Positions 501 through 27,392 of a stretch of 64,000 nt of DNA are shown here, one piece after another. Numbering within the stretch: the stretch's first letter is position 1; every line of letters starts with the position of its first letter. Location of the stretch: positions 242,944 to 306,943 of the forward strand of contig JAQULK010000001.1 of the NCBI GenBank assembly GCA_028718635.1, read 5' to 3'. The notes under the pieces are model-generated. The model worked only from the letters and a program-made list of their open reading frames with translations, was not told the origin of the DNA and searched no databases. The position numbers were made by a program, and so were the translations under genes. The stretch is from Minisyncoccota bacterium. GTDB lineage: Bacteria; Patescibacteriota; Minisyncoccia; Phycocordibacterales; UBA9973.

Positions 501-622
501 ATCCCGTTAGAAGTCCTATAGTTAATTAAAATCACAACTAGTGATATAATGAAGTCATGTCTTGTAGTCTTTATTATTTAATTTACTACGGAAATCTAAA
601 GATTTCCTACTTCTAACGGGAT
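501..622 (+). repeat. start-codon-embedding inverted-repeat element, copy 1 (ATCCCGTTAGAAG ... CTTCTAACGGGAT)
   Basis: Perfect 13-bp terminal inverted repeats at 501-513 and 610-622. The ATG of the downstream gene (621-623) shares its A and T with the right repeat. The interior is AT-rich and contains a GGAAATC-TAAA-GATTTCC sub-hairpin. It is flanked by direct ATGAAT(CCC). Confidence 0.8.
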
Positions 623-3389
623 GAATCCCTCATTCTTTAGAGAGATGCCGAAGTTTAAAAGTCCTGACGAGGAGCTGGATTATTTGCGTGCTCATGTGAA
701 AGCCAGAGAGGAAGAGCTTATAAACACAGGGCATATAGAACATGCTACAGAGAATGCTGCCCATGGCGTAATCAGTGAATATAAAAATATACCAGCCGAA
801 CAATTAATTCATAAAAATAATCTAATAAATGAAAAAGAGGCGGAAGGTATCGTGTTAAAACTAAAGCCGGAATCTCATGATAGCGTGATGGAAGAACTTT
901 TGGGAATTGTTATTACTAAAGGAGTTCGCAATGCCCTTTCTGTGGTGGAAATGATGAACAATCCACACGTGGATGATGATTTTCACAGAATTCTTATTCA
1001 GTATCTAAAAACTGGGGTGGCAAAATTAGATTTGCGAGAAGATTCTCCTATTTATAAGGCTCTCCATATGACCCTTTTCGAAATTACTCTTCCGCCACCA
1101 GAGGAAGAAGCAGACAAATCGAAAAGTTTTAAAGAATTTATCGGCGCCATGGAACAATTTTACGCTGGAATGCAATCCATCGGAGAAGGCAAATATAATG
1201 AAAAAGAAAACTATTTTACTTTGGAGATAGCCCTCGGCAATCAAAGCGATGAAGTCGTCGTCTATGCAGCTATTCCCAATAAATATCTTTCGCTTTTTGA
1301 AAAACAAATTTTGGCTTTTTATCACTATGCAAAAATCAAAGAAGTCGCGGATGATTACAATATTTTCAGCGAGAACGGCGGGTCAGTTGGCGCTTATGCG
1401 AGTTTTACCGAGCGCGCAGTGATGCCGATCAAAACTTATGACAATATTGAGCATGATCCTATGAATCCGATCTTGAATGTTTTTTCTAAATTGCAAACAT
1501 CAGGAGAAGGCGCGGCGATTCAGCTCGTGATAGCGCCAGCCGGAGATAAATTCATAAATGAATTTCACAAAATTTTAGATGATGTTAAAGACGGTACTTC
1601 GGTAAAACATGCAGATGATAATTTTTACAAATTCAATAAAGCTTTTTTAAAAGCAGGCAAAGGCTTAATGTTCGGTCATAAAGAAAAAAGCGAAGACGAG
1701 AAAAAAGAAAAATATATGAAAGGCAGGCGCGCGGTAGATGAGGGTGCTGCTGAAAAGATAGGAAACAAGATAAAAAGCACTATCATGAAAGCGAATATTC
1801 GAGTGATCGCTTCGGGAGGGACGCCGGAGCGCGCAGAGGCAATTTTACGGGAAATAGAATCTTCTTTTAATCAGTTTTCCGAAGCAGCCAGCAACTCTTT
1901 TGTTTTTGAACAAGCAAGAGGAGGCGAATTAAAAAAACTTTTCCATGATTTTTCTTATCGTACATTTTCTGCCGATAAAATATTGCCTTTGAATTTAAAA
2001 GAGCTTGCTTCAGTATTTCATTTCCCAGTCGGAATGGGGAGCCAGCCACAATTAAGAGAAGCCAAAGCAGGCATTGCTCCTGCTCCGATAGAAATGGGCC
2101 AAGAGGGAGTAATTCTTGGGGTAAACAGTTATAGAGGCAAAGATACCGAAATTCACCTTGCGCGCGAAGATCGCATGCGGCATTTTTATGTCATCGGCCA
2201 GACTGGTACTGGTAAGACGAACATTATGCTCAATATGATAACGCAGGACATTAAAAATGGAGATGGGTGTTGCTATATTGATCCGCATGGAACCGATATT
2301 CAAACGATCCTTTCTCGAATACCAAAAGAACGCATTGAAGATGTGGTTTATTTTGATCCAGCTTATACTGCGCGACCAATGGGCCTCAATATGCTCGAAT
2401 ATGATCCGAAATATCCGGAGCAGAAAACTTTTGTGGTGAATGAAATGATGGGAATCTTCAACAAGCTTTTCGATATGAAAGTCGGAGGCGGAGCGATGTT
2501 TGAGCAATATTTTAGGAATAGCGCCTTTTTAGTGATGGAAGATCCGGAGTCTGGTTCAACTTTGCTTGAGATTACCCGTGTCTTGGGTGATAAAAGTTTT
2601 CGTGATATGAAGCTCGCTAAATGCAAGAATCCTATCATCAAACAATTTTGGATTTCAGCAGAACAAACGACGGGGGATCAATCGCTCGCGAACTTTGTGC
2701 CTTACATTTCTTCTAAGTTCGACAACTTTATCAGCAATGACATCATGCGTCCAGTAGTGCTTCAACAAAATTCTGTTTTTAATTTCAGGAAAATTATGGA
2801 TGAGAAGAAAATTCTTCTAGTAAATCTTTCTAAGGGTAGACTGGGAGATATTAATGCGAACTTAATTGGTCTGGTGCTCGTCGGTAAGATTCAAATGGCA
2901 GCGCTTTCTCGCGTGGATATGTTTGGCAAACCTATGAATGATTTTTATTTATATATTGATGAGTTCCAAAATGTTACCACGGATTCCATTGCTTCTATCT
3001 TATCCGAAGCTCGAAAATATAGACTGTCTTTAAATATTGCGCACCAGTATATCACTCAGCTTGAAGAAAATATTAAAAATGCTGTTTTTGGCAACGTCGG
3101 ATCCATGGCAGTATTTCGAGTGGGCACCGAAGACGCCACTTTTTTAGAGCCGAAATTTAAGCCTCAATTTTCTGCTCGAGATATTACCAAGCTTGAGAAT
3201 CGAAATGCTTATATAAGTATGCTAGTAAATGGCCAACCAACAAAGCCATTTAATTTAAAAACTTTAGATGCAAAAAAAGGCAATCCAGATATTGTAGATA
3301 ATTTAAAAGAACTTTCCTATCTAAAATTTGGCCGAGACCGAGAAGAAGTAGAGGCGGAAATCATGGCAAGGTATTCGGGGATGGAGTAA
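621..3389 (+). CDS. large P-loop ATPase, VirD4/TraG/HerA-like (DUF87-type AAA-like domain) with an N-terminal domain of about 400 aa of unknown function
   Basis: 922-aa ORF. Walker A GQTGTGKT is followed by YIDPHG and a Walker B-like YLYIDEFQN, as in T4SS coupling-protein/HerA-like ATPases. Confidence 0.5.
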   Translation: MNPSFFREMPKFKSPDEELDYLRAHVKAREEELINTGHIEHATENAAHGVISEYKNIPAEQLIHKNNLINEKEAEGIVLKLKPESHDSVMEELLGIVITKGVRNALSVVEMMNNPHVDDDFHRILIQYLKTGVAKLDLREDSPIYKALHMTLFEITLPPPEEEADKSKSFKEFIGAMEQFYAGMQSIGEGKYNEKENYFTLEIALGNQSDEVVVYAAIPNKYLSLFEKQILAFYHYAKIKEVADDYNIFSENGGSVGAYASFTERAVMPIKTYDNIEHDPMNPILNVFSKLQTSGEGAAIQLVIAPAGDKFINEFHKILDDVKDGTSVKHADDNFYKFNKAFLKAGKGLMFGHKEKSEDEKKEKYMKGRRAVDEGAAEKIGNKIKSTIMKANIRVIASGGTPERAEAILREIESSFNQFSEAASNSFVFEQARGGELKKLFHDFSYRTFSADKILPLNLKELASVFHFPVGMGSQPQLREAKAGIAPAPIEMGQEGVILGVNSYRGKDTEIHLAREDRMRHFYVIGQTGTGKTNIMLNMITQDIKNGDGCCYIDPHGTDIQTILSRIPKERIEDVVYFDPAYTARPMGLNMLEYDPKYPEQKTFVVNEMMGIFNKLFDMKVGGGAMFEQYFRNSAFLVMEDPESGSTLLEITRVLGDKSFRDMKLAKCKNPIIKQFWISAEQTTGDQSLANFVPYISSKFDNFISNDIMRPVVLQQNSVFNFRKIMDEKKILLVNLSKGRLGDINANLIGLVLVGKIQMAALSRVDMFGKPMNDFYLYIDEFQNVTTDSIASILSEARKYRLSLNIAHQYITQLEENIKNAVFGNVGSMAVFRVGTEDATFLEPKFKPQFSARDITKLENRNAYISMLVNGQPTKPFNLKTLDAKKGNPDIVDNLKELSYLKFGRDREEVEAEIMARYSGME

Positions 3390-10152: not shown

Positions 10153-12105
10153 TTGTGCTATTATCATCCTATGGATTTGAATTTTTTCAACAAAAAGGAA
10201 CCAAATAATAAAGGAAAAAAAATTCCACCCAAGAGCAATTTCGGCGGGAATATTGCCGGCGCGATAGTTTTTTTTATGCTCATTACAGCGCTTTATTTAG
10301 TGGTGTCTGGAGACGGGAAAACAACTCCCCAAGTTTCGATTTCTGAATTAGCCAATAGTGTCGTGGCAGGGAATGTCAAAACCATCTTAGTGGAAGGGGA
10401 TAAGCTCACTATCACTTATCAAAATGGCGATGTTAAAGAATCTAAAAAAGAAGTCGGCGCGCCGCTTTCGCAAACACTTTTTGATTATGGGGTAACATCT
10501 GCCGCGATTGCAAAAACAGACATTCAAATAAAAAACGAGAGTGGTTTTATGTTTTGGCTGGTAAATTTGCTGCCGTTTATTTTGCCGATAATTTTTATTT
10601 TAATTTTCTTTTGGTATTTGTCTCGGCAAGTCAAGGGCGCAGGAATGCAGGCTTTTACTTTTGGACAATCCAAAGCTCGTCTCACGAATCCGGATGATAA
10701 AAACAATCGGGTCACCTTTAAAGATGTGGCTGGTTGCAAAGAGGCTAAAGAAGAATTAAAAGAAATAGTAGATTTCTTAAAAAGTCCCAAAAAGTTTTTA
10801 GATATTGGAGCCAGAATTCCCAAAGGAGTCATTTTAACCGGCGCCCCAGGGACTGGCAAGACTTTGCTCGCGCGAGCAGTGGCAGGAGAAGCGAACGTGC
10901 CATTTTTTCATCTTTCTGGAAGTGAGTTTGTGGAAATGTTTGTCGGAGTCGGAGCTTCTAGAGTGCGAGATCTTTTTAAAATGGCCAAAAAAGCGGCGCC
11001 TGCTATTATTTTCGTAGATGAAATAGACGCCATAGGCCGTACTCGCGGAGGAGGATTCGGAGGAGGGAATGACGAACGCGAACAGACCTTAAATCAAATT
11101 TTAGTAGAGATGGATGGTTTTGAGCCGAACGACAAAGTAATAGTGATGGCAGCGACTAATAGGCCAGACGTGCTAGATCCGGCACTCATTCGTCCAGGGC
11201 GTTTTGATCGAAAAGTTATGCTTGATTTGCCTGATCGTACCGATCGCGAAGAGATATTGAAAATTCATGCATTAAAAAAACCGTTAGCTGAAGATATAAA
11301 TTTGAAATTGATTGCTGAACGCACTCCCGGTTTTTCCGGCGCGGATTTGTATTCACTTATGAACGAAGGCGCCATCTTGGCGGCTCGAGAAAATCGCAAG
11401 AAAGTTTTTCAATTTGATTTGATTCGCGCGATTGAAAAAGTGATGCTTGGTCCAGAGCGAAAAAGTCATTTACTTTCCAAAAAAGAAAAAGAAATTACTG
11501 CTTACCATGAAGCCGGGCATGCGATCGTGGCATCGGTGCTTCCGCATGCAGATCCGGTGCACAAAGTTTCTATTATCGCTCGCGGAAATGCCGGGGGATA
11601 TACTTTAAAGTTACCGCTTGAAGAACGACGTTTGCAATCCAAAAAAGAATTTATTGATGACATCGCTATGTCCCTCGGCGGATATGTGGCTGAGCAAATG
11701 ATTTTCGGAGACATCACCACCGGACCGTCGAGTGATTTGCAAGTAGCGACAAATCTAGCGCGAGCGATGGTGACGAGATGGGGGATGTCCGATGTTATCG
11801 GACCGATAGCTTTAGTGGATTCTCCCGGTAGGTCTCAATATGGTGAAATGTCTGCTGAAAAAGAATTTTCTGAAGCCGTTTTCACTAAAGTCGATAGAGA
11901 AGTTTCGAGAATCATAAATGATGGGTTAAAGACTGCGCAAAAAGTGTTGGAAGAAAACAAAAAAGCATTTACCGCCATTGCTTTAAAACTTATAGAAGTG
12001 GAAACTTTAGAACAGGAAGACTACGAGAAAATTTTGGTTGCTCATGGTATTATGTTAAAAAAGAAAGATGTTATAGAAACATCCGTCCTTAGCTCAGTTG
12101 GTTAG
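10153..12105 (+). CDS. ftsH: ATP-dependent zinc metalloprotease FtsH (start possibly at the MDL codon at 10171; the 3' end runs about 23 nt into the tRNA)
   Basis: N-terminal TM segments, AAA module GAPGTGKT...[11 protein letters not shown], and the zinc motif HEAGHA. Confidence 0.9.
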
Positions 12106-12156
12106 AGCACAGAGCTTATACCTCTGGGGTCCTTGGTTCGAATCCAAGAGGACGGA
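12083..12156 (+). tRNA. tRNA-Ile, apparent anticodon TAT (UAU)
   Basis: Manual fold: acceptor CCGTCCT/AGGACGG, D-arm GCTC-AGTTGGTTA-GAGC, anticodon arm CAGAG-CTTATAC-CTCTG, T-arm CTTGG-TTCGAAT-CCAAG, discriminator A. Confidence 0.7.
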
Positions 12157-12220
12157 CACGAAGAGTCTTTTTTAAAAAATCTCTAAAAAGCCAAATGTCA
12201 AGAAGTTTTACATAACATGC

Positions 12221-12248
12221 TTGACTTCTTTACATTTATCTATATACT
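12221..12248 (+). promoter_or_regulatory. sigma70-like promoter (-35 TTGACT, 16-nt spacer, -10 TATACT) ending 6 nt before the ATG, suggesting a leaderless transcript
   Basis: Hexamers read at 12221-12226 and 12243-12248. ATG is at 12255. Confidence 0.45.
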
Positions 12249-12254
12249 AATTAC

Positions 12255-12929
12255 ATGAGTAATAAATATGCACAATTTATAAAAACTACTAGAAAAGAGC
12301 GTGGACTTTCTCAGTCTTTCTTGGCTAATAAATTAGGTATTTCTAGACCTTCCTATATAAGCATAGAACAAGGCAAAAGAGAATTAACCTTGGGAGAGTT
12401 TGAAAAGCTTTCCGGAGTTTTGGGTGTTTCTTTTGAAGAATTAGAGGGAGGAGAATCTCCGAATTATGAAAAGTACAAGCAAATGATCTTGGCTTTCTTA
12501 CGATTAGACAAAAAAATTCCAAAAACTAAACTTGCAAAACTTGTGTATCTTGCAGATGCTGGTTGGTTTTATTATCGTTTGCGCAGTATGAGCGGTATGC
12601 AATATAGAAAAATCCAATATGGTCCAGTAGCAGAATCATATTTTAGTATAATAGATGAGCTATATCAAAATGGTCAAATTGAGATAGAACAAACAAAAGA
12701 AGGCGCCATGCTCGTATCTCAAACTCGCGCTGGCGGAAAAAGTTCTTTATCTGAAATAAAGAAAGAAGAATTAAAACTAATAACAGATGTTAATCACAAA
12801 TGGAAAAATAAAAAAACTAAAGAAATCGTTGAGTTTACTCACAATCAACTTCCATATTTATGCGCTAAAAAAAATGAAATTATCACTCTTGGCTTAATAA
12901 CACAGGAAGATCCGCATGAATATTACTAA
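12255..12929 (+). CDS. XRE-HTH fused to a DUF4065 (Panacea)-like domain, an antitoxin-like protein
   Basis: N-terminal HTH LSQSFLANKLGISRPSYISIEQG. The C-terminal KLAKLVYLADAGWFY resembles the DUF4065/SocA-like antitoxin domain. Confidence 0.5.
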   Translation: MSNKYAQFIKTTRKERGLSQSFLANKLGISRPSYISIEQGKRELTLGEFEKLSGVLGVSFEELEGGESPNYEKYKQMILAFLRLDKKIPKTKLAKLVYLADAGWFYYRLRSMSGMQYRKIQYGPVAESYFSIIDELYQNGQIEIEQTKEGAMLVSQTRAGGKSSLSEIKKEELKLITDVNHKWKNKKTKEIVEFTHNQLPYLCAKKNEIITLGLITQEDPHEYY

Positions 12930-13317
12930 TGAATACGAAGTGGTGTTTGAGCCTTTTTCCGAAAGACATTTCATAAAAACTTTTTCGAAAAAATATAAAA
13001 ATGCATGGGATAGCACTTTCTTTTTTATAAAAGAAGAGTTTAAGTTTTTTGATGTTTTATTTAGTAAAAGTATTGCGGAATATATTACTGATAAAAATGC
13101 AGACATTGCTATTTGTAAAACAGAATTTAAGATTTCTGGTACGAAAGAATCTCGTCATGGTTCTGGCAATAGATGTATTGTCGCTATTCATAAAAATATA
13201 AACAAAGTTTGTGTTTTGCTTGTGTATCATAAAAATGACATGGGAGGGGGTAGTGAAACGGGTAATTGGGTTAAATTAGTTAAAGAAAATTATCCCCAAT
13301 ATTCTAAAATCTTGTAA
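12916..13317 (+). CDS. hypothetical protein, candidate cognate toxin
   Basis: 133-aa ORF that overlaps the upstream gene by 14 nt (translational coupling). No known motif. Confidence 0.35.
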   Translation: MNITNEYEVVFEPFSERHFIKTFSKKYKNAWDSTFFFIKEEFKFFDVLFSKSIAEYITDKNADIAICKTEFKISGTKESRHGSGNRCIVAIHKNINKVCVLLVYHKNDMGGGSETGNWVKLVKENYPQYSKIL

Positions 13318-14037: not shown

Positions 14038-16332
14038 ATGAAAAAAACAGAAAAAATTTTAAAAAGTGAATTAGCAAAAATAAAATCAATCCGAAGAAGA
14101 ACTGGTGAGGTTGTTTCTTTTGATTTAGGGAGAGTGGCTCGAGCAATTTTGAAAGCTTTTGAGGTGACAGGAGAAGGAGGAGAGGCAGAATCACAAGAAG
14201 TCGCTAAGCGCGTTTTTAGAAATCTTTTAAAGATTCAAGCCGGCTTGGTAAGTGCGCATAAAGGAGCAAAATTTTTACCTACCGTTGAGATGGTTCAAGA
14301 TCTAGTGGAAAAAGAATTAATGAAAAACAATTTTACCGATACCGCTAAAAAATATATTCTTTACCGCAATAAACGTTCAGAGCTTCGCGCTGCTTTCGGT
14401 CCTGTGCCTGAATCTGTCCGGCTGGCTGTAGAAGAATCCAGTAAGTATTTTAGCAGTCCTTATTCTGAATATATTTTTTACCAATTTTATTCCAGGTGGG
14501 TTCCAGAGCTGGGACGCAGAGAGACCTGGATCGAGGCTATTGATCGCTTTATGTCTTTTATGAAAGAGAATATGGGAGATAAACTTACCGCTAAAGAATA
14601 TGTGGATGTTCGCCAGGCCATTTTAAATCAAGATATTTGCCCTTCTATGCGTCTTTTGTGGTCTGCTGGAAAAGCTTGCCGTGAGTCTAATGTTTGGGCG
14701 TATAATTGTTCATATATTGCTCCAACTTGTCCTCAAGATTTAGGTGAAATAATGTATATTTCCATGTGTGGGGCTGGTCTCGGCTTTGCCGTTGAATGGG
14801 AAAATGTTCAACAATTTCCCCAAATAAAAAAACAAACAAAAGAAAAGCCAACAATTCATATAGTTCATGACAGCAAAGAAGGCTGGGCGAATGCTTTTGT
14901 TTTAGGACTCAAAGCTTGGTTTGATGGCAAGGATGTGAAATTTGATTATTCTGCGATCAGACCAGCTGGAGCACGGCTCGAAACAGCAGGCGGGAGGGCC
15001 TCCGGACCACAACCCTTGATGGATTTAATGGAATTCGCTAGACGTAAAATTTTATCAAAACAAGGCCGTCGTCTTTCAAATCTAGACATGCATGATATTA
15101 TTTGTCAGATTGGAATGATCGTGGTGGCAGGAGGAGTCAGGCGTAGCGCTTTGATTTCTCTTTCTGAATTAGAAGACAAAGAGATGCGAGATGCCAAAAA
15201 AGGACAGTTTTATTTAACCGAGGGTCAACGTTCTATGGCAAACAATTCCGCAGTCTATAATTCTAAACCATCAGCTGAAGAGTTTCTAAATGAATGGACT
15301 GCTTTAGTGAAATCTAAATCCGGGGAGCGTGGGATTTTCAATCGAGGCGGATTAGAAAAACAATTACCAGCTCGCAGGTGGGCAGCTATAAAAGATGAAC
15401 GACAAATAGGAATGAATCCTTGTGGAGAAATTTATTTGCGTTCCAAACAATTTTGTAATTTGACCAGTATCGTGATTCGGCCAAAGGACACCATTGAAAC
15501 TCTCAAAAGAAAAATGGAATTAGCGACTTTGCTCGGGACTTATCAATCTACTTTGACGAATTTTGGTTATCTTTCAAAAAAATGGAAAGAAAATTGTGAA
15601 GAAGAAAGATTGCTCGGCGTATCCCTCACAGGTTATTACGACAATCCTCTTATTAGAAATGATAAAGTATTGGACATTCTTCGTCTTGATTCTATTGAGA
15701 CAAATAAAAAATATGCGAAACGCTTCGGAATCAATCCTTCTACCGCGATAACTTGCGTGAAGCCCCATGGCAATTCCGGTCAGCTCTTGGGAGTCGGTTC
15801 TGGTATGCATCCTTGGTATGCTCCGTATTTTATTCGCCGAGTACGAATTTCTCACACCGACACATTACTTCAAATGGCTCGAGACCAAGGGGTACCTTGT
15901 TTACCGGAAGTCGGTCAGTCTTCCGAATCCGCAACCACTTACGTTTTAGAATTTCCAGTCAAAGCGCCAGCAGGAGCAATCTTCAAAGACGAAGTTTCAG
16001 CCCTTGATTTGATTAAAGAATGGAAAAGACTCAAGGAGCATTTCGTGGAACACAATCCATCCGCGACGATCTATGTCGGTCCGGATGAATGGCTCGCTGT
16101 TGGAAATTTCGTTTACGAAAACTGGGATGTGATCGGCGGGCTTTCTTTCCTTCCTCGATCGGAGCATGTTTATCAATTAGCTCCGTATGAAGCAATTACC
16201 AAAGAAGAATACGAGAGGCGCGCTCGAAATATTGGCAAGATTGATTTCTCAAAACTTTCTCAATATGAAGCGACAGACAACACCACTGGAGCGAAAGAGT
16301 TTGCTTGTGTTTCTGGTGTTTGCGAATTGTAA
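14038..16332 (+). CDS. nrdJ: adenosylcobalamin-dependent ribonucleoside-triphosphate reductase (class II, monomeric NrdJ type)
   Basis: 764 aa with the NPCGEI active-site motif and the general class II architecture. Confidence 0.75.
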   Translation: MKKTEKILKSELAKIKSIRRRTGEVVSFDLGRVARAILKAFEVTGEGGEAESQEVAKRVFRNLLKIQAGLVSAHKGAKFLPTVEMVQDLVEKELMKNNFTDTAKKYILYRNKRSELRAAFGPVPESVRLAVEESSKYFSSPYSEYIFYQFYSRWVPELGRRETWIEAIDRFMSFMKENMGDKLTAKEYVDVRQAILNQDICPSMRLLWSAGKACRESNVWAYNCSYIAPTCPQDLGEIMYISMCGAGLGFAVEWENVQQFPQIKKQTKEKPTIHIVHDSKEGWANAFVLGLKAWFDGKDVKFDYSAIRPAGARLETAGGRASGPQPLMDLMEFARRKILSKQGRRLSNLDMHDIICQIGMIVVAGGVRRSALISLSELEDKEMRDAKKGQFYLTEGQRSMANNSAVYNSKPSAEEFLNEWTALVKSKSGERGIFNRGGLEKQLPARRWAAIKDERQIGMNPCGEIYLRSKQFCNLTSIVIRPKDTIETLKRKMELATLLGTYQSTLTNFGYLSKKWKENCEEERLLGVSLTGYYDNPLIRNDKVLDILRLDSIETNKKYAKRFGINPSTAITCVKPHGNSGQLLGVGSGMHPWYAPYFIRRVRISHTDTLLQMARDQGVPCLPEVGQSSESATTYVLEFPVKAPAGAIFKDEVSALDLIKEWKRLKEHFVEHNPSATIYVGPDEWLAVGNFVYENWDVIGGLSFLPRSEHVYQLAPYEAITKEEYERRARNIGKIDFSKLSQYEATDNTTGAKEFACVSGVCEL

Positions 16333-16469: not shown

Positions 16470-17027
16470 ATGCTCTACACTAGAAAAGGAGACAACGGCA
16501 CAACGAAAACTTTTGCTTGCGATCAGCGTATTTCTAAAAGTTCCATAGTGGCTGAAGCCTTAGGCGCGCTCGATGAAGCGAACTCTTTTTTAGGTTTAGC
16601 CCGCGCTAGAACCAAAGATAAAGTTTTTGAAATTAAAGGTGAGCGAATAAAATTTCCTGACCTTATCTTAGAGATTCAGCAGAATTTATTTATTGTGCAA
16701 GCAGAAGTCGCCGGGGCGACTCTTTCCATAGAAGGAGAGAAAGTAAAAAAAATAGAAAAAATAGTGGATGAAATTGAAAAAATCTTACCGCCTATTAAAA
16801 CTTTTTTTATCAGTGGCGCCACAAAAGATGGAGCAGTGCTGGATATTTCTAGAACCTTGGTGCGACGCGCGGAGAGGAGGGTGATAGATGCAAAAGAGGA
16901 AGGAAAAACAAAAATCAGCGTTGAGACGCTGACATATCTTAATAGACTCTCTAGTTTACTATACGCCTTAGCTCGCATCGCGAGCCACTTAGAAGGCGAA
17001 GAAGAAATCAAACCGGAGTATAAATAG
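16470..17027 (+). CDS. ATP:cob(I)alamin adenosyltransferase, PduO type
   Basis: N-terminal MLYTRKGDNGTT...EALGALDEANSFLGLARA matches the PduO/MMAB family. Confidence 0.75.
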   Translation: MLYTRKGDNGTTKTFACDQRISKSSIVAEALGALDEANSFLGLARARTKDKVFEIKGERIKFPDLILEIQQNLFIVQAEVAGATLSIEGEKVKKIEKIVDEIEKILPPIKTFFISGATKDGAVLDISRTLVRRAERRVIDAKEEGKTKISVETLTYLNRLSSLLYALARIASHLEGEEEIKPEYK

Positions 17028-22944: not shown

Positions 22945-23158
22945 TTTGCGGGCAGTTTGGTACGTCGCTCAAGCCTTGAGGATCTTCAGATTTGAATGAG
23001 TTTTTTGGAGTCGTGCGAGGATATGCCAGATATATTAAGAAACAGGAGTGATATTGAGAAGAGAGAGCTATTGGGATGTTTGAAGAGTAAAATATTGCTG
23101 GCAATTACGCACAAAAAACAAGCTTAAAATCTAAGCATCTCGTGCTATCTGTTGCTTG

Positions 23159-23247
23159 CGGAGCCGGGCGGATTCGAACCGCCGAGGGGTTTTAAAGCCC
23201 CTGCCTCTTTAGCAAAGAGGTACGTTAGACCACTCTGACACGGCTCC
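23159..23247 (-). tRNA. tRNA-Ser (GCT)
   Basis: Minus-strand fold: acceptor GGAGCCG/CGGCTCC, anticodon arm CCTCT-TTGCTAA-AGAGG, long variable arm, T-arm GGCGG-TTCGAAT-CCGCC, discriminator G. Confidence 0.8.
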
Positions 23248-23317: not shown

Positions 23318-23404
23318 GGAGAGATGGGTGAGTGGTTGAAACCAACAGTTTACTAAACTGTCGTCCCTTTAAAAGGACCGAGGGTTCGAATCCCTCTCTC
23401 TCCG
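23318..23404 (+). tRNA. class II (Ser-type architecture) tRNA with an unusual anticodon loop TTACTAA, apparent anticodon ACT
   Basis: Acceptor GGAGAGA/TCTCTCC, 3-bp D-stem GGT/ACC with loop GAGTGGTTGAA (parallel to E. coli tRNA-Ser), anticodon arm ACAGT-TTACTAA-ACTGT, long variable arm GTCC..GGAC, T-arm GAGGG-TTCGAAT-CCCTC, G73. Confidence 0.6.
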
Positions 23405-23492
23405 CAGTCAGTATTTAGTATCGGAAGACTCTGATGCTCGACACTTTCTTTAGTGTGATAACTATTGGTTTTTAATATATACTTTACTCAGT

Positions 23493-26400
23493 ATGAAGAA
23501 AGTATCACTAACCGAAAAGCTGCAAAAAAGAATTTGGAGGGACGCTAAAGATGCAGCTGGTCCTCGCTATACCAGCGATATAAATGTTGAATTGGAAATA
23601 AAAGATGTATTCGATGGTATTGGTAGGACTGAGAAGATTTTTGAGGAAATTGAAGAATTTAGAAAAAAAATAAGAAGTGCATATAAATCAATCAGTCACC
23701 TAAAAACTTCAGAATATAAAGACGACGTTATAAAAAAGAATCTCAAAAAAATTCAAGCTCTTGGAAAATTTTTCCTAGTAACCACCGAAAAATTTGGCAA
23801 GGACCAGTCTAGAATGATTGATTTAAAATCAATCATTCTAGCAACAAAAAAAATTTCTCCCTATTTTTCTCCTATTGAAAGGAGTATATGGGATTTTGAG
23901 AGAAAGGAGGATGATGAACAAAGGGAAAAAGCAAAGACTGAGAACCGACAGTACTTTGGACATAGCCAGTCGGACGAATTAAGAAAACTTAAAAGCCTTG
24001 AGCATAATCTCAGAGAATTTAGTAGAGGTATTCGAGAAATAGATTATTTTGCAAAAAGTCACAAGGCACAACTTTTAAATAATCCTTTTTTGCTCATCCT
24101 TGGTCAGGCAGGAATGGGGAAAACACATTTGGTATGTGATATAACTAAAAACCGCCTTGAAAATGAACTTCCGCCAACTGTGATTGTTTTAGGTGAAAAA
24201 CTTCTAGACATTCAAGATTCTCTTGGTGCCATATTCAGCGCCGTCTCAATAAAAGGATCTAAGAAAAAGATTTTAAATGAACTTAATGAAAGAGGTAAAA
24301 AAGCAAATCGAAGGGCTTTAATAATTGTTGACGCAATAAATGAAGCTGACAGACGAGGTTGGAAATCGGGAGTGTATAAACTTATTCACGAGGTAAAGAA
24401 TTATCATTGGGTTGGGTTAGTGATGACATGCAGAGTACCCTTCCAGTTTCTATACCTTCCAAAAAAGTTAAAAATAATAACGGAATATCATCAAGGTTTT
24501 CAAGACAACGAGTTAGAGGCCATGACTGCATTCTTTAATTTTTACGGTTTATCTTTACCTCAAGTGCCACTTCTTATATCCGAGTTTAGTAGCCCACTAT
24601 TCCTTAGTTGTTTTTGTAGAACGGCGAGAGATATTAAAGGTGGGAAAGCAAAGGTAGTAAAAGGGATTAATGACCTTGCTTTGGGTCAAGTGGGAATGAC
24701 TAAAATCTTGGAAGATTTCTATATCTCGAAAGAAGAATGGATAGTAAAGAAACACACATCAAAATTCAAAATTCTTATAAAGCAATCTTGGATTTGGCAT
24801 AAATCTGGAGATTGTCTTATAAAGAATATCGCCAAGGTAATGGCAATTAACGGACAACAGTATCTCAAAGAAAACGAAGTGCTTCAGGTTATTAAAGACC
24901 TATCTAATAATAAGTATTCATTCATAACATGCTCAAAAGTTTTAAAAATTTTAATAGAAGAAGGAGTACTAATTCGAGATGCAGCTTGGGATGATCAAAC
25001 AAAAAAATATTTTGACGTATTCAAATTCTCTTTTCATAAATTTAGTGACCATATAATTGCAAGATATCTCTTGGGGGGATTTTTTGACAGCAAAAAGATA
25101 ACAGCTAGTCTCCATGCTTCAAATTCTCTTGGTAACCTTTTTTCTTCAGAAGAAAGTATATTAAGAAACATAGGATTGATTGAAGCTCTGATGGTTGAAT
25201 TTCCAGAAAGAATAAAGAAAAATCCAAAATTAACAGAAAGTGACTTAATTGATTACATACCAGAAACACTCAAGGCTGATTCTCAAATCATGTCAGCTTT
25301 TATCGAAAGCTTATATTGGAGGAAGCCTGAGAATTTCCTAAACACTAAAGGACTAATCAAAAAGTCTATAGTTGATTATATAAATAAAACGCTTCTACGT
25401 TACGAAAACTCTTCTCGGGAATTTTTAAACCTATTTGTTGCAACAGCCACAAAACCATTCCATCCCTTTAACTCAAAAATGCTCAACAAATATTTATTGA
25501 AATTCTCGCTTACTGATAGAGATTTAATCTGGTCTGAATATGTAAGAAAACAATATGGTTCAGGCAGTATATATAAACTAATTTCTTGGATTGAAAATCA
25601 AACTCTTGAAAAAATTACGGCTGACCAAGCTGCTTCTGTAATTACAGTATTATCATGGGCGTTGGGAACAAACGTTAAATTACTGAGAAATAGAGCTACA
25701 CGGTGTTTGTATATTGTTGGCAAGATTCATCCGGAGGAATTTTTTAAATCTCTTCAAGAAATTATACACATAAACGACCCTTATATCCGAGAACGAATTC
25801 TATCCGTAGGGTATGGAATTGCAATGGCGATTGAGGACCTAGATAAAAAGCTAATTTCAAAAGTCTTATTTCCTAATGCTAAAACTATTTATGCTCTTTT
25901 TTTTAAAAAAGGAGCTAAGTTGGGTTCAACAAATGTTCTCATCAGAGACTATGTTCGAGGTATTATTGAGGTAGCGTTATATCATAATGAGAAATTACTT
26001 TCACCTGCTCAAATAAGACGTGTTAGACCACCCTATACTGACGGTGGCACCCGCAAATGGGGTCGCAACCTAGACAAGGATGAAGGCAAATATCGAGATG
26101 GTAATTCACCTTTAGGGTGGGAGTTTGAAAAAGACACTTTAAGACACCTTGTTGGTAGTCAAGCTTATGATGATAAGGACAAGAATTACATTCGTCTAAA
26201 AGAAAACATGATGTGGCGACTTTATCAGCTTGGCTATTCTCTTGAAAAATTTGGCGAAATTGATAAAGAAATTGTTCGTAATACAAGATACGATGGACCT
26301 CAAAACTATGCTGGAAAAATAGAAAGATATGGAGAAAAATATTCTCTTATCGCATATCATGAAATGCTAGGTATTAAGCTAGATAAAAAGAAGTTGGACC

Positions 26401-27392
26401 GTTGGTGGTACACAGAAGATGGGAGAAACAGTGAGTTTGAAGTAGATGCTAGTTTTCCACAAACACCGAAACGAAATAAATTATTTTCAAAAGATCTGAC
26501 CTCTGGTCCAACAGATATTAAGAAATGGATGGTTCAGAAAAATCCTCCTGATATTTCCAATTATTTAGAAATTGATAAGATTGATGGCCTTCCAGGCCCT
26601 TGGATTTTAGTTGATGGAATTATTGGGGAGAAAAATACAAATAAAAGTCGAAAAGTCACAACTTTTATTTATGGTATTCTTGTAAATGAGGTAAATGAGA
26701 AAAAAATCGAGGAATTCATGGCAAAGACTCCATTTCCAGGAAATGATAATATCCCTTCTCTACCTGAAACCAGAGAAGTTTTTGCAGGAGAGCTTGGATG
26801 GAGAGAGAAAAATACACCAGATCCAAATTTATATATCAAAATTAAACGAGGAGAAATACAAAAAAAACTTACGGAAAAAGAAAAAAGGTTCCATTCTATC
26901 CGATTCGCTTTCTTTGGAGAAAAGGAAGTTGTCCAAAAGAAACAATCACTACCAGAATTTAAAACAGAAACTATATATGAAGAGATACCAATACAGCGTC
27001 TTGCAAGATGGTTTGTATCAAAGGATTACACCTACATTAAAGATAACGATACAACCGGACTACATTTATTGAGTAAGAAAATAGTAAAAAAATATAAACT
27101 GCATTGTGCTCCAGCATCATTCAATATCTTGAACGCCAAGAGAGAAGTTGTTGCTATTCCTGTTTCTGTAGGAAATCAATATGGCACACATGAGAACCTA
27201 CTCTATGCAAGAAAAGATTTAGTTGATCTTATATTAAAAGAGAGCGGTAAAAAGATGCTTATTGTCACTTGGGGCGAAAGACAATATTGGCCAGAAAATT
27301 TAGATGACATACACCGAACTGACCATAGAAGCATAATTGAAAAACGTGAGAATATATACAAACAAAACTACAGCTATCCTTTTAAAAAGTAA
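23493..27392 (+). CDS. giant (1299 aa) P-loop NTPase, STAND/AAA-like (Avs/NACHT-like architecture), a candidate defense protein
   Basis: Walker A LILGQAGMGKTHL and Walker B RALIIVDAINEAD at about aa 195-290, with an N-terminal domain of about 190 aa and a C-terminal helical region of about 900 aa. Confidence 0.5.
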   Translation: MKKVSLTEKLQKRIWRDAKDAAGPRYTSDINVELEIKDVFDGIGRTEKIFEEIEEFRKKIRSAYKSISHLKTSEYKDDVIKKNLKKIQALGKFFLVTTEKFGKDQSRMIDLKSIILATKKISPYFSPIERSIWDFERKEDDEQREKAKTENRQYFGHSQSDELRKLKSLEHNLREFSRGIREIDYFAKSHKAQLLNNPFLLILGQAGMGKTHLVCDITKNRLENELPPTVIVLGEKLLDIQDSLGAIFSAVSIKGSKKKILNELNERGKKANRRALIIVDAINEADRRGWKSGVYKLIHEVKNYHWVGLVMTCRVPFQFLYLPKKLKIITEYHQGFQDNELEAMTAFFNFYGLSLPQVPLLISEFSSPLFLSCFCRTARDIKGGKAKVVKGINDLALGQVGMTKILEDFYISKEEWIVKKHTSKFKILIKQSWIWHKSGDCLIKNIAKVMAINGQQYLKENEVLQVIKDLSNNKYSFITCSKVLKILIEEGVLIRDAAWDDQTKKYFDVFKFSFHKFSDHIIARYLLGGFFDSKKITASLHASNSLGNLFSSEESILRNIGLIEALMVEFPERIKKNPKLTESDLIDYIPETLKADSQIMSAFIESLYWRKPENFLNTKGLIKKSIVDYINKTLLRYENSSREFLNLFVATATKPFHPFNSKMLNKYLLKFSLTDRDLIWSEYVRKQYGSGSIYKLISWIENQTLEKITADQAASVITVLSWALGTNVKLLRNRATRCLYIVGKIHPEEFFKSLQEIIHINDPYIRERILSVGYGIAMAIEDLDKKLISKVLFPNAKTIYALFFKKGAKLGSTNVLIRDYVRGIIEVALYHNEKLLSPAQIRRVRPPYTDGGTRKWGRNLDKDEGKYRDGNSPLGWEFEKDTLRHLVGSQAYDDKDKNYIRLKENMMWRLYQLGYSLEKFGEIDKEIVRNTRYDGPQNYAGKIERYGEKYSLIAYHEMLGIKLDKKKLDRWWYTEDGRNSEFEVDASFPQTPKRNKLFSKDLTSGPTDIKKWMVQKNPPDISNYLEIDKIDGLPGPWILVDGIIGEKNTNKSRKVTTFIYGILVNEVNEKKIEEFMAKTPFPGNDNIPSLPETREVFAGELGWREKNTPDPNLYIKIKRGEIQKKLTEKEKRFHSIRFAFFGEKEVVQKKQSLPEFKTETIYEEIPIQRLARWFVSKDYTYIKDNDTTGLHLLSKKIVKKYKLHCAPASFNILNAKREVVAIPVSVGNQYGTHENLLYARKDLVDLILKESGKKMLIVTWGERQYWPENLDDIHRTDHRSIIEKRENIYKQNYSYPFKK

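Follow-up and report, generated by a model that had tools for sequence, protein, structure and literature searches.

The toxin-antitoxin systems that most resemble the locus described here are those of the PanAT kind, in which an antitoxin with a Panacea domain (PanA) is encoded immediately upstream of a small toxin (PanT) in a two-gene locus conserved across species. The defining study lists 88 toxin clusters and 343 PanAs with an N-terminal helix-turn-helix (HTH) domain, and the antitoxin-first order is the commoner one (Kurata et al. 2022, PMC8832971). Here we analyze a two-gene cassette in a 64,000-nucleotide (nt) stretch of DNA from a Minisyncoccota bacterium (assembly GCA_028718635.1, contig JAQULK010000001.1, positions 242,944 to 306,943 of the forward strand), which is called the window below and numbered from its first letter. 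Its first gene, ORF1 (12255-12929, + strand, ATG start), is panA-like and encodes a 224-residue protein with an XRE-type HTH, a Panacea domain and a conserved C-terminal tail. The second, ORF2 (12916-13317, + strand, ATG start), is panT-like and encodes a 133-residue protein with a predicted RelE/ParE fold, which we regard as a putative HigB-2-like mRNA endonuclease. With moderate confidence, we interpret the cassette as a self-contained, autoregulated type II toxin-antitoxin system of the PanAT kind whose toxin is a RelE/HigB-2-like putative mRNase.

A toxin of this superfamily next to a Panacea antitoxin has a precedent in Dataset S1 of the same study, where the predicted, untested PanT clusters T14 and T28 have HHpred hits to HigB-2, YoeB and ParE (Kurata et al. 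2022, PMC8832971). The likeness to these clusters is by description only. The PanAs of T14 and T28 are listed there without an N-terminal domain and come from archaea, Proteobacteria and other groups, whereas ORF1 has an HTH; by contrast with T14 and T28, the ORF2 family matches no Pfam model and has been found only in Patescibacteria. The names of Patescibacteria are absent from the text of that study and from the supplements examined (PMC8832971), and nothing on this toxin family appears among the best-ranked papers matching a search for toxin-antitoxin systems in Patescibacteria.

Pairing of ORF1 and ORF2

The preliminary description of this DNA had reported two overlapping reading frames here, with an antitoxin-like gene first and an ORF of unknown function second. 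Both lie where they were described and in that order, and the ORF1 stop and ORF2 start share 14 nt (12916-12929, + strand; ATGAATATTACTAA). Because ORF1 has 2341 homologues and ORF2 has 952, the sequence comparisons identify both as genuine genes and not as chance reading frames. The ORF2 homologues are about 131-133 residues long, and the best 120 of the 952 are 66-100% identical to ORF2. Among the matches listed, every named one comes from Patescibacteria (Paceibacteria/Parcubacteria lineages) and every annotation is 'hypothetical'. ORF1, which NCBI names 'DUF4065 domain-containing protein', has homologues annotated as 'DUF4065 domain-containing' or 'helix-turn-helix domain-containing', with a single 'antitoxin SocA domain-containing' entry.

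Two domains are recognized in ORF1. An XRE/Cro-C1 HTH domain occupies residues 9-63 (12279-12443, + strand; Pfam HTH_3, E = 3e-14, 53.2 bits against a cut-off of 23), and a Panacea (SocA_Panacea/DUF4065) domain occupies residues 93-199 (12531-12851, + strand; PF13274, E = 5.5e-14, 53.5 bits, above the gathering threshold of 25.7). The fusion of an XRE HTH to a DUF4065-like domain that had been proposed from the letters alone is thus borne out by the profile search with PF13274 suggested at that time, and the peptide KLAKLVYLADAGWFY cited then falls at the start of the Panacea match. The Panacea region also matches the phage protein family phrog_1281 and, weakly, the PADLOC candidate PDC-M19A.

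ORF1 ends in a conserved C-terminal tail (residues 200-224, LPYL...LITQEDPHEYY; 12852-12926, + strand). P200, Q217, E218 and P220 are invariant in the alignment of the ORF1 family (A3), and the predicted local distance difference test score (pLDDT) of the AlphaFold2 model is below 50 at all of these 25 residues except 207 and 221. Toxin-binding regions of type II antitoxins are usually conserved tails that do not fold alone, and this tail is a candidate toxin-binding segment by that analogy. A second conserved segment of low model confidence spans residues 110-124 and includes an invariant SMSG...YGPV pattern. Its motif, RSMSGMQYRKIQYGPV (12584-12628), is near-invariant across ORF1 homologues with pLDDT values below 50, and the segment may be a loop by which the Panacea domain binds a ligand or a partner.

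We compared 85 loci that contain a gene for a relative of ORF2. In 84 of them this gene is directly preceded, on the same strand, by one for a full-length homologue of ORF1 (48-80% identity), and the exception is truncated by a contig edge. All 84 loci thus have the antitoxin-like gene in first position, and the two genes overlap by 11 nt (36 loci), 14 nt (32 loci) or 4 nt (one locus), or are separated by a gap of 2-6 nt (15 loci). A Saccharimonadia subgroup with toxins only about 30% identical to ORF2 has the same upstream HTH-Panacea partner, likewise overlapping. Because these 84 loci and the Saccharimonadia subgroup all keep the partner, the pairing holds in every subgroup examined. By the published definition, a PanAT locus consists of two genes at most 100 nt apart that are conserved in at least two species and lie in no longer conserved operon (Kurata et al. 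2022). The homologous loci agree with this pattern, with genes that overlap or lie no more than 6 nt apart in 84 of 85 and no flanking protein family in more than 7 of 80 loci.

The two proteins also co-diverge: their pairwise distances are correlated (r = 0.69), and none of 999 Mantel permutations reaches this value. In the two closest genomes the cassette lies near the same housekeeping genes as in the window, and these are the only loci that share the flanks in question (FtsH in L007; ribonucleotide reductase and a membrane protein in L024). The cassette diverges faster than these neighbors, with 79% and 69% identity for the toxin and 67% and 67% for the antitoxin versus 86% for FtsH and 88% for ribonucleotide reductase.

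The cassette is patchily distributed, with a pattern scan detecting it in 105 of 185,579 species-representative genomes. This count is a minimum, since the search patterns miss divergent members. Among 1.84 billion cluster representatives, 206 clusters match at E <= 0.001. As judged from these sequence matches, the toxin family is found only in Patescibacteria, and it is absent from 50,697 phage records, 72,556 plasmids and the IMG/VR viral contigs. Some contigs with the cassette (among L029, L046, L049, L057, L059, L076, L079 and L084) bear the labels Verrucomicrobiota, Nanoarchaeota, Pacearchaeota, Bacteroidia or Gammaproteobacteria, which may reflect mistakes in binning or labelling or genuine transfer beyond Patescibacteria.

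Predicted fold and active-site residues of ORF2

ORF2 was originally noted as a protein with no known motif. For the model libraries that description still stands, as there is no match in Pfam or NCBIfam at E <= 1, none in PADLOC and only a weak PHROG match (E = 0.015). It does not extend to structure, where ORF2 is predicted to be a divergent RelE/HigB-2-like protein. The AlphaFold2 model built from a 30-sequence alignment has a pLDDT of 87.2 and a predicted template modelling score (pTM) of 0.82, with the topology beta1, alpha1, alpha2, a short alpha3, four strands and a C-terminal helix. The RelE/ParE fold starts with an N-terminal strand and a helical hairpin, continues with an antiparallel sheet of three to four strands and closes with a C-terminal helix, and the model contains each of these elements.

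Profile searches point in the same direction. A profile of close relatives (A1) has no matches at E <= 10 among Protein Data Bank sequences in an hmmsearch comparison. When 54 divergent members of the family are used instead (A2), the sole match is HigB-2 of Vibrio cholerae (E = 0.01), and the alignment pairs SGNRxI...ILLVYxKN with GGSRII...LLTIYGKN. An hhalign comparison of the ORF2 family with HigB-2 gives a probability of 79.9% over 54 columns; residues 52-91 of the HigB-2 sequence compared agree with the profile alignment.

HigB-2 is a ribosome-dependent mRNase of the RelE type (Hadzi et al. 2017, PMC5416850). Its RelE-like active site consists of Arg51, Arg64, Tyr82 and Lys84, where alanine substitutions cut activity 170- to 3000-fold, and its long beta2-beta3 loop is required for activity (Hadzi et al. 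2017, PMC5416850). R86 of ORF2 aligns with Arg64 and is invariant across the family. Tyr82 and Lys84 correspond in the alignment to Y104 and K106, which show at least 90% conservation. K68 in strand beta2 is also invariant. The beta2-beta3 loop of ORF2 is likewise long and conserved, reading SRHGSGNR in ORF2 and SxKxSGNR family-wide, whereas the loop of HigB-2 is lysine-rich. Together, the model and the aligned residues suggest that ORF2 is most probably a ribosome-dependent mRNA endonuclease.

The resemblance to HigB-2 does not make the cassette a HigBA system. ORF2 and HigB-2 are about 20% identical over the 54 aligned columns, and ORF2 is about 20 residues longer. In HigB-2/HigA-2 the toxin is encoded first and is neutralized by HigA-2 through its disordered N-terminus, whereas in the 84 loci here the antitoxin gene comes first and the antitoxin has a Panacea domain and is not of the HigA type. 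We rejected HigBA membership because both gene order and antitoxin differ. The archaeal and bacterial RelE and YoeB structures 1wmi and 7v6w have 11-16% sequence identity to ORF2, and the corresponding antitoxins, RelB and YefM, are unrelated to Panacea. Panacea-related antitoxins of two other systems, SocAB (type VI) and DarTG, are paired with toxins (SocB and DarT) that are unrelated to RelE, and the models for SocA and DarG score far under their cut-offs on ORF1. Membership in SocAB was rejected because its toxin is unrelated to the RelE-like fold predicted for ORF2 and the SocA model (NF047745) gives 16.7 bits against a cut-off of 190.

The control region and a proposed mechanism

A sigma-70-like promoter (TTGACT, 16 nt, TATACT; 12221-12248, + strand) with 10 of 12 matches lies between a tRNA-Ile gene and ORF1, and its -10 hexamer ends 6 nt before the ORF1 ATG. 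Promoter-like sites are no more frequent overall in our scan than in shuffled sequences, and a single match is at chance level. The promoter hexamers are, however, conserved in the consensus of 77 distinct homologous upstream regions, ATGTCAAaaTTATtAACAcctaATGTTTGACTTTTTTACATAaaTgTATATACTtaAagTATG. This consensus also holds two 19-bp imperfect palindromes of the form ATGY-N11-RCAT about 61 and 38 nt ahead of the antitoxin ATG. In the window, these correspond to the operator-like palindrome O1 (ATGTCAAGAAGTTTTACAT; 12195-12213, + strand), which is upstream of the -35 hexamer and has a counterpart in most of the 77 regions, and to O2 (ATGCTTGACTTCTTTACAT; 12217-12235, + strand), which overlaps it and is conserved across loci. 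The core pattern TGY-N11-RCA occurs 121 times in the 77 upstream regions versus 6.5 +/- 2.6 times in shuffles, with two sites in 48 regions and at least one in 71. The HTH in the antitoxin and the two conserved palindromes at the promoter may together make up an autoregulated type II operon, in which the DNA-binding domain of the antitoxin would recognize O1 and O2.

The antitoxin mRNA is probably leaderless or near-leaderless because 6-9 nt separate the -10 hexamer from the ATG in 61 of 74 loci and Shine-Dalgarno-like tetramers are found upstream of this start in only 5 of 77. Only 19 of 79 loci have such a tetramer ahead of the toxin start, and toxin translation therefore probably relies on coupling across the ORF1/ORF2 overlap. 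The same count led us to drop the idea that a Shine-Dalgarno site for the toxin underlies the invariant QE(D/N)P at the end of the antitoxin.

These elements can be assembled into a working mechanism. ORF1, probably as a dimer, would bind O1 and O2, the latter overlapping the -35 hexamer, through its XRE HTH and so repress the operon. The antitoxin would be made from the leaderless or near-leaderless message, and the toxin would follow by coupling across the 14-nt overlap. ORF1 may then bind and neutralize ORF2 by its Panacea domain, by the conserved and probably disordered C-terminal tail, or by both. ORF2 most likely moves into the A site of the ribosome and cuts mRNA under translation, using R86, Y104, K106 and a basic beta2 residue (K68 or K72) for catalysis, while the loop SRHGSGNR probably contacts 16S rRNA.

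Genomic context, alternative explanations and significance

The neighbors of the cassette in the window are housekeeping genes. They include NDK, a beta-CASP RNase, a SLOG protein, IF3, SmpB, FtsH and tRNA-Ile, and further a membrane protein, a B12-dependent ribonucleotide reductase, a cobalamin adenosyltransferase, RecG and 6PGD. The tRNA-Ile gene (anticodon TAT; 12083-12157, + strand) is directly 5' of the cassette and overlaps the final 23 nt of the FtsH ORF (10153-12105). A tRNA-Ile with a UAU anticodon is uncommon in bacteria, where AUA is usually read by a lysidine-modified CAU tRNA. In the closest relative (L007), a tRNA-Ile gene also follows FtsH. We asked whether a mobile element might have integrated at this tRNA gene and rejected the idea: there is no integrase or repeat evidence, near relatives retain the housekeeping neighbors, and tRNA genes, of many different types, are near only 24 of the 85 loci.

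Other features of the window are less directly connected with the cassette. A class II (B12-dependent) ribonucleotide reductase with an ATP-cone (14038-16332, + strand) is followed by a cobalamin adenosyltransferase (16470-17027, + strand), and in this reduced genome the two make a coherent pair for the use of B12. ARAGORN predicts a tRNA-Ser with the unusual anticodon ACT (23318-23405, + strand) that has a clean cloverleaf and a long variable arm. It is divergent from the normal tRNA-Ser(GCT) (23158-23247, - strand), and a divergent tRNA-Ser pair is found in L037 as well. Two very large ORFs, 621-3389 (+ strand, 922 residues) and 23493-27392 (+ strand, 1299 residues), have no Pfam match at E <= 1e-5.

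The proposal in the preliminary description that the two genes are a candidate PanA-PanT pair is supported by the PF13274 match, the 84 of 85 paired loci, the variable flanks, the co-divergence of the proteins, and the predicted RelE/ParE fold with HigB-2-type residues. Several observations nevertheless weigh against our interpretation. Both proteins have a mean pairwise identity of 61%, which is unusually high for a toxin-antitoxin pair, and the neighbors of the cassette are housekeeping genes, with no integrase, transposase or mobile-element gene nearby among the ORFs examined. No terminator-like (intrinsic) site was detected downstream of it. ORF2 belongs to none of the curated RelE/ParE sequence families (PF06296 RelE, ParE_toxin, YoeB, HigB), no Pfam RelE, ParE or HigB model matches it, and only one of 54 relatives matches PF06296 (E = 0.014). 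The profile match to HigB-2 is borderline and covers the C-terminal half only, and Arg51 has no clear counterpart, with K72 and the invariant K68 as candidates, since gaps in the alignment fall within strand beta2. On the antitoxin side, Panacea either binds the toxin directly or leaves neutralization to an appended element (Ernits et al., PMC10440598). The toxin-binding element of ORF1 is uncertain because the Panacea domain itself is not toxin-neutralizing in some multidomain PanAs (PMC10440598).

One alternative concerns biological role and is compatible with the mechanism that we favor. The same architecture might serve phage defence by abortive infection, with the Panacea domain sensing a phage cue and releasing or activating the RelE-like toxin. 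The matches of the Panacea region to phrog_1281 and PDC-M19A fit this role, and some homologous cassettes hint at a defence-island association: L004 (1-3124) is beside an HsdM/Eco57I methylase and an SLFN_AlbA_2 ATPase, L086/L087 (1-1745) beside an MmeI-type restriction-modification system and an Mrr nuclease, and L088 (1-1446 and 5375-5974) beside SIR2_2 and Bro-N. DUF4268 also occurs among the restriction and defence neighbors of these cassettes. These are only three distinct loci, an anecdotal count, whereas the neighbors in the window and in L001 are housekeeping genes. The lack of a PADLOC match for ORF2 and the absence of its family from the phage, plasmid and IMG/VR collections also argue against defence, and we consider this role unlikely, though a real contender.

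The remaining explanations question the mechanism itself. The RelE/ParE fold houses gyrase poisons too, and ORF2 might use it for ParE-like poisoning of DNA gyrase or for ribosome-independent RNA cleavage, an activity that we think doubtful. It is more improbable that the pair has been domesticated as non-toxic regulators, an XRE repressor and a co-regulator kept for gene regulation in Patescibacteria. The unusually high conservation across lineages, which extends to the promoter and palindromes, and the housekeeping neighborhood with the same locus in near relatives L007 and L024 would suit such a role, as would the finding of Kurata et al. that eight of their tested PanTs are non-toxic in E. 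coli (PMC8832971). However, catalytic-type residues that are invariant or nearly so are hard to explain without enzymatic activity, and the patchy distribution, the variable flanks and the faster divergence of the cassette than of its FtsH and ribonucleotide reductase neighbors also count against domestication. A SocAB-like type VI system, in which ORF1 would not sequester the toxin but act as a proteolytic adaptor that hands it to ClpXP, seems very improbable. The Panacea domain was first characterized in SocA, and ORF1 has a weak NCBIfam SocA_antitoxin match (E = 0.0045). This match is far under the cut-off, however, the predicted toxin fold is that of RelE and not SocB-like, and the PanAT pairs tested to date form direct complexes, as type II systems typically do (PMC8832971).

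Conceptually, a PanAT-kind cassette with a RelE-type toxin is an expected combination of known parts. What this analysis adds to the earlier interpretation, from sequences and structural models, is a putative RelE/HigB-2-like mRNase, a strict pairing apparently limited to Patescibacteria, a conserved promoter with two operator-like palindromes, and a probably leaderless antitoxin mRNA. It offers a likely fold and mechanism for about 950 'hypothetical proteins' (about 200 clusters at 50% identity) that are recognized by no hidden Markov model library, and it extends the PanAT network to Patescibacteria, whose toxin-antitoxin biology has hardly been studied. Because it is conserved, the non-coding control region also yields a candidate promoter and operator, a rarity for these uncultured bacteria. 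With its promoter, two operators, antitoxin and toxin, the compact cassette is suited to asking which part of an HTH-Panacea protein neutralizes a RelE-type toxin. More speculatively, and with a rather small chance of being right, the family may be a RelE toxin branch specific to Patescibacteria that has remained tied to a single HTH-Panacea partner and a single promoter-operator design in at least two classes, Paceibacteria and Saccharimonadia, with a conserved beta2-beta3 loop (SxKxSGNR) adapted to the atypical ribosome of these ultra-small bacteria. If so, episymbionts would have in this cassette a lineage-wide switch for growth arrest or defence, rather than an interchangeable toxin-antitoxin pair.
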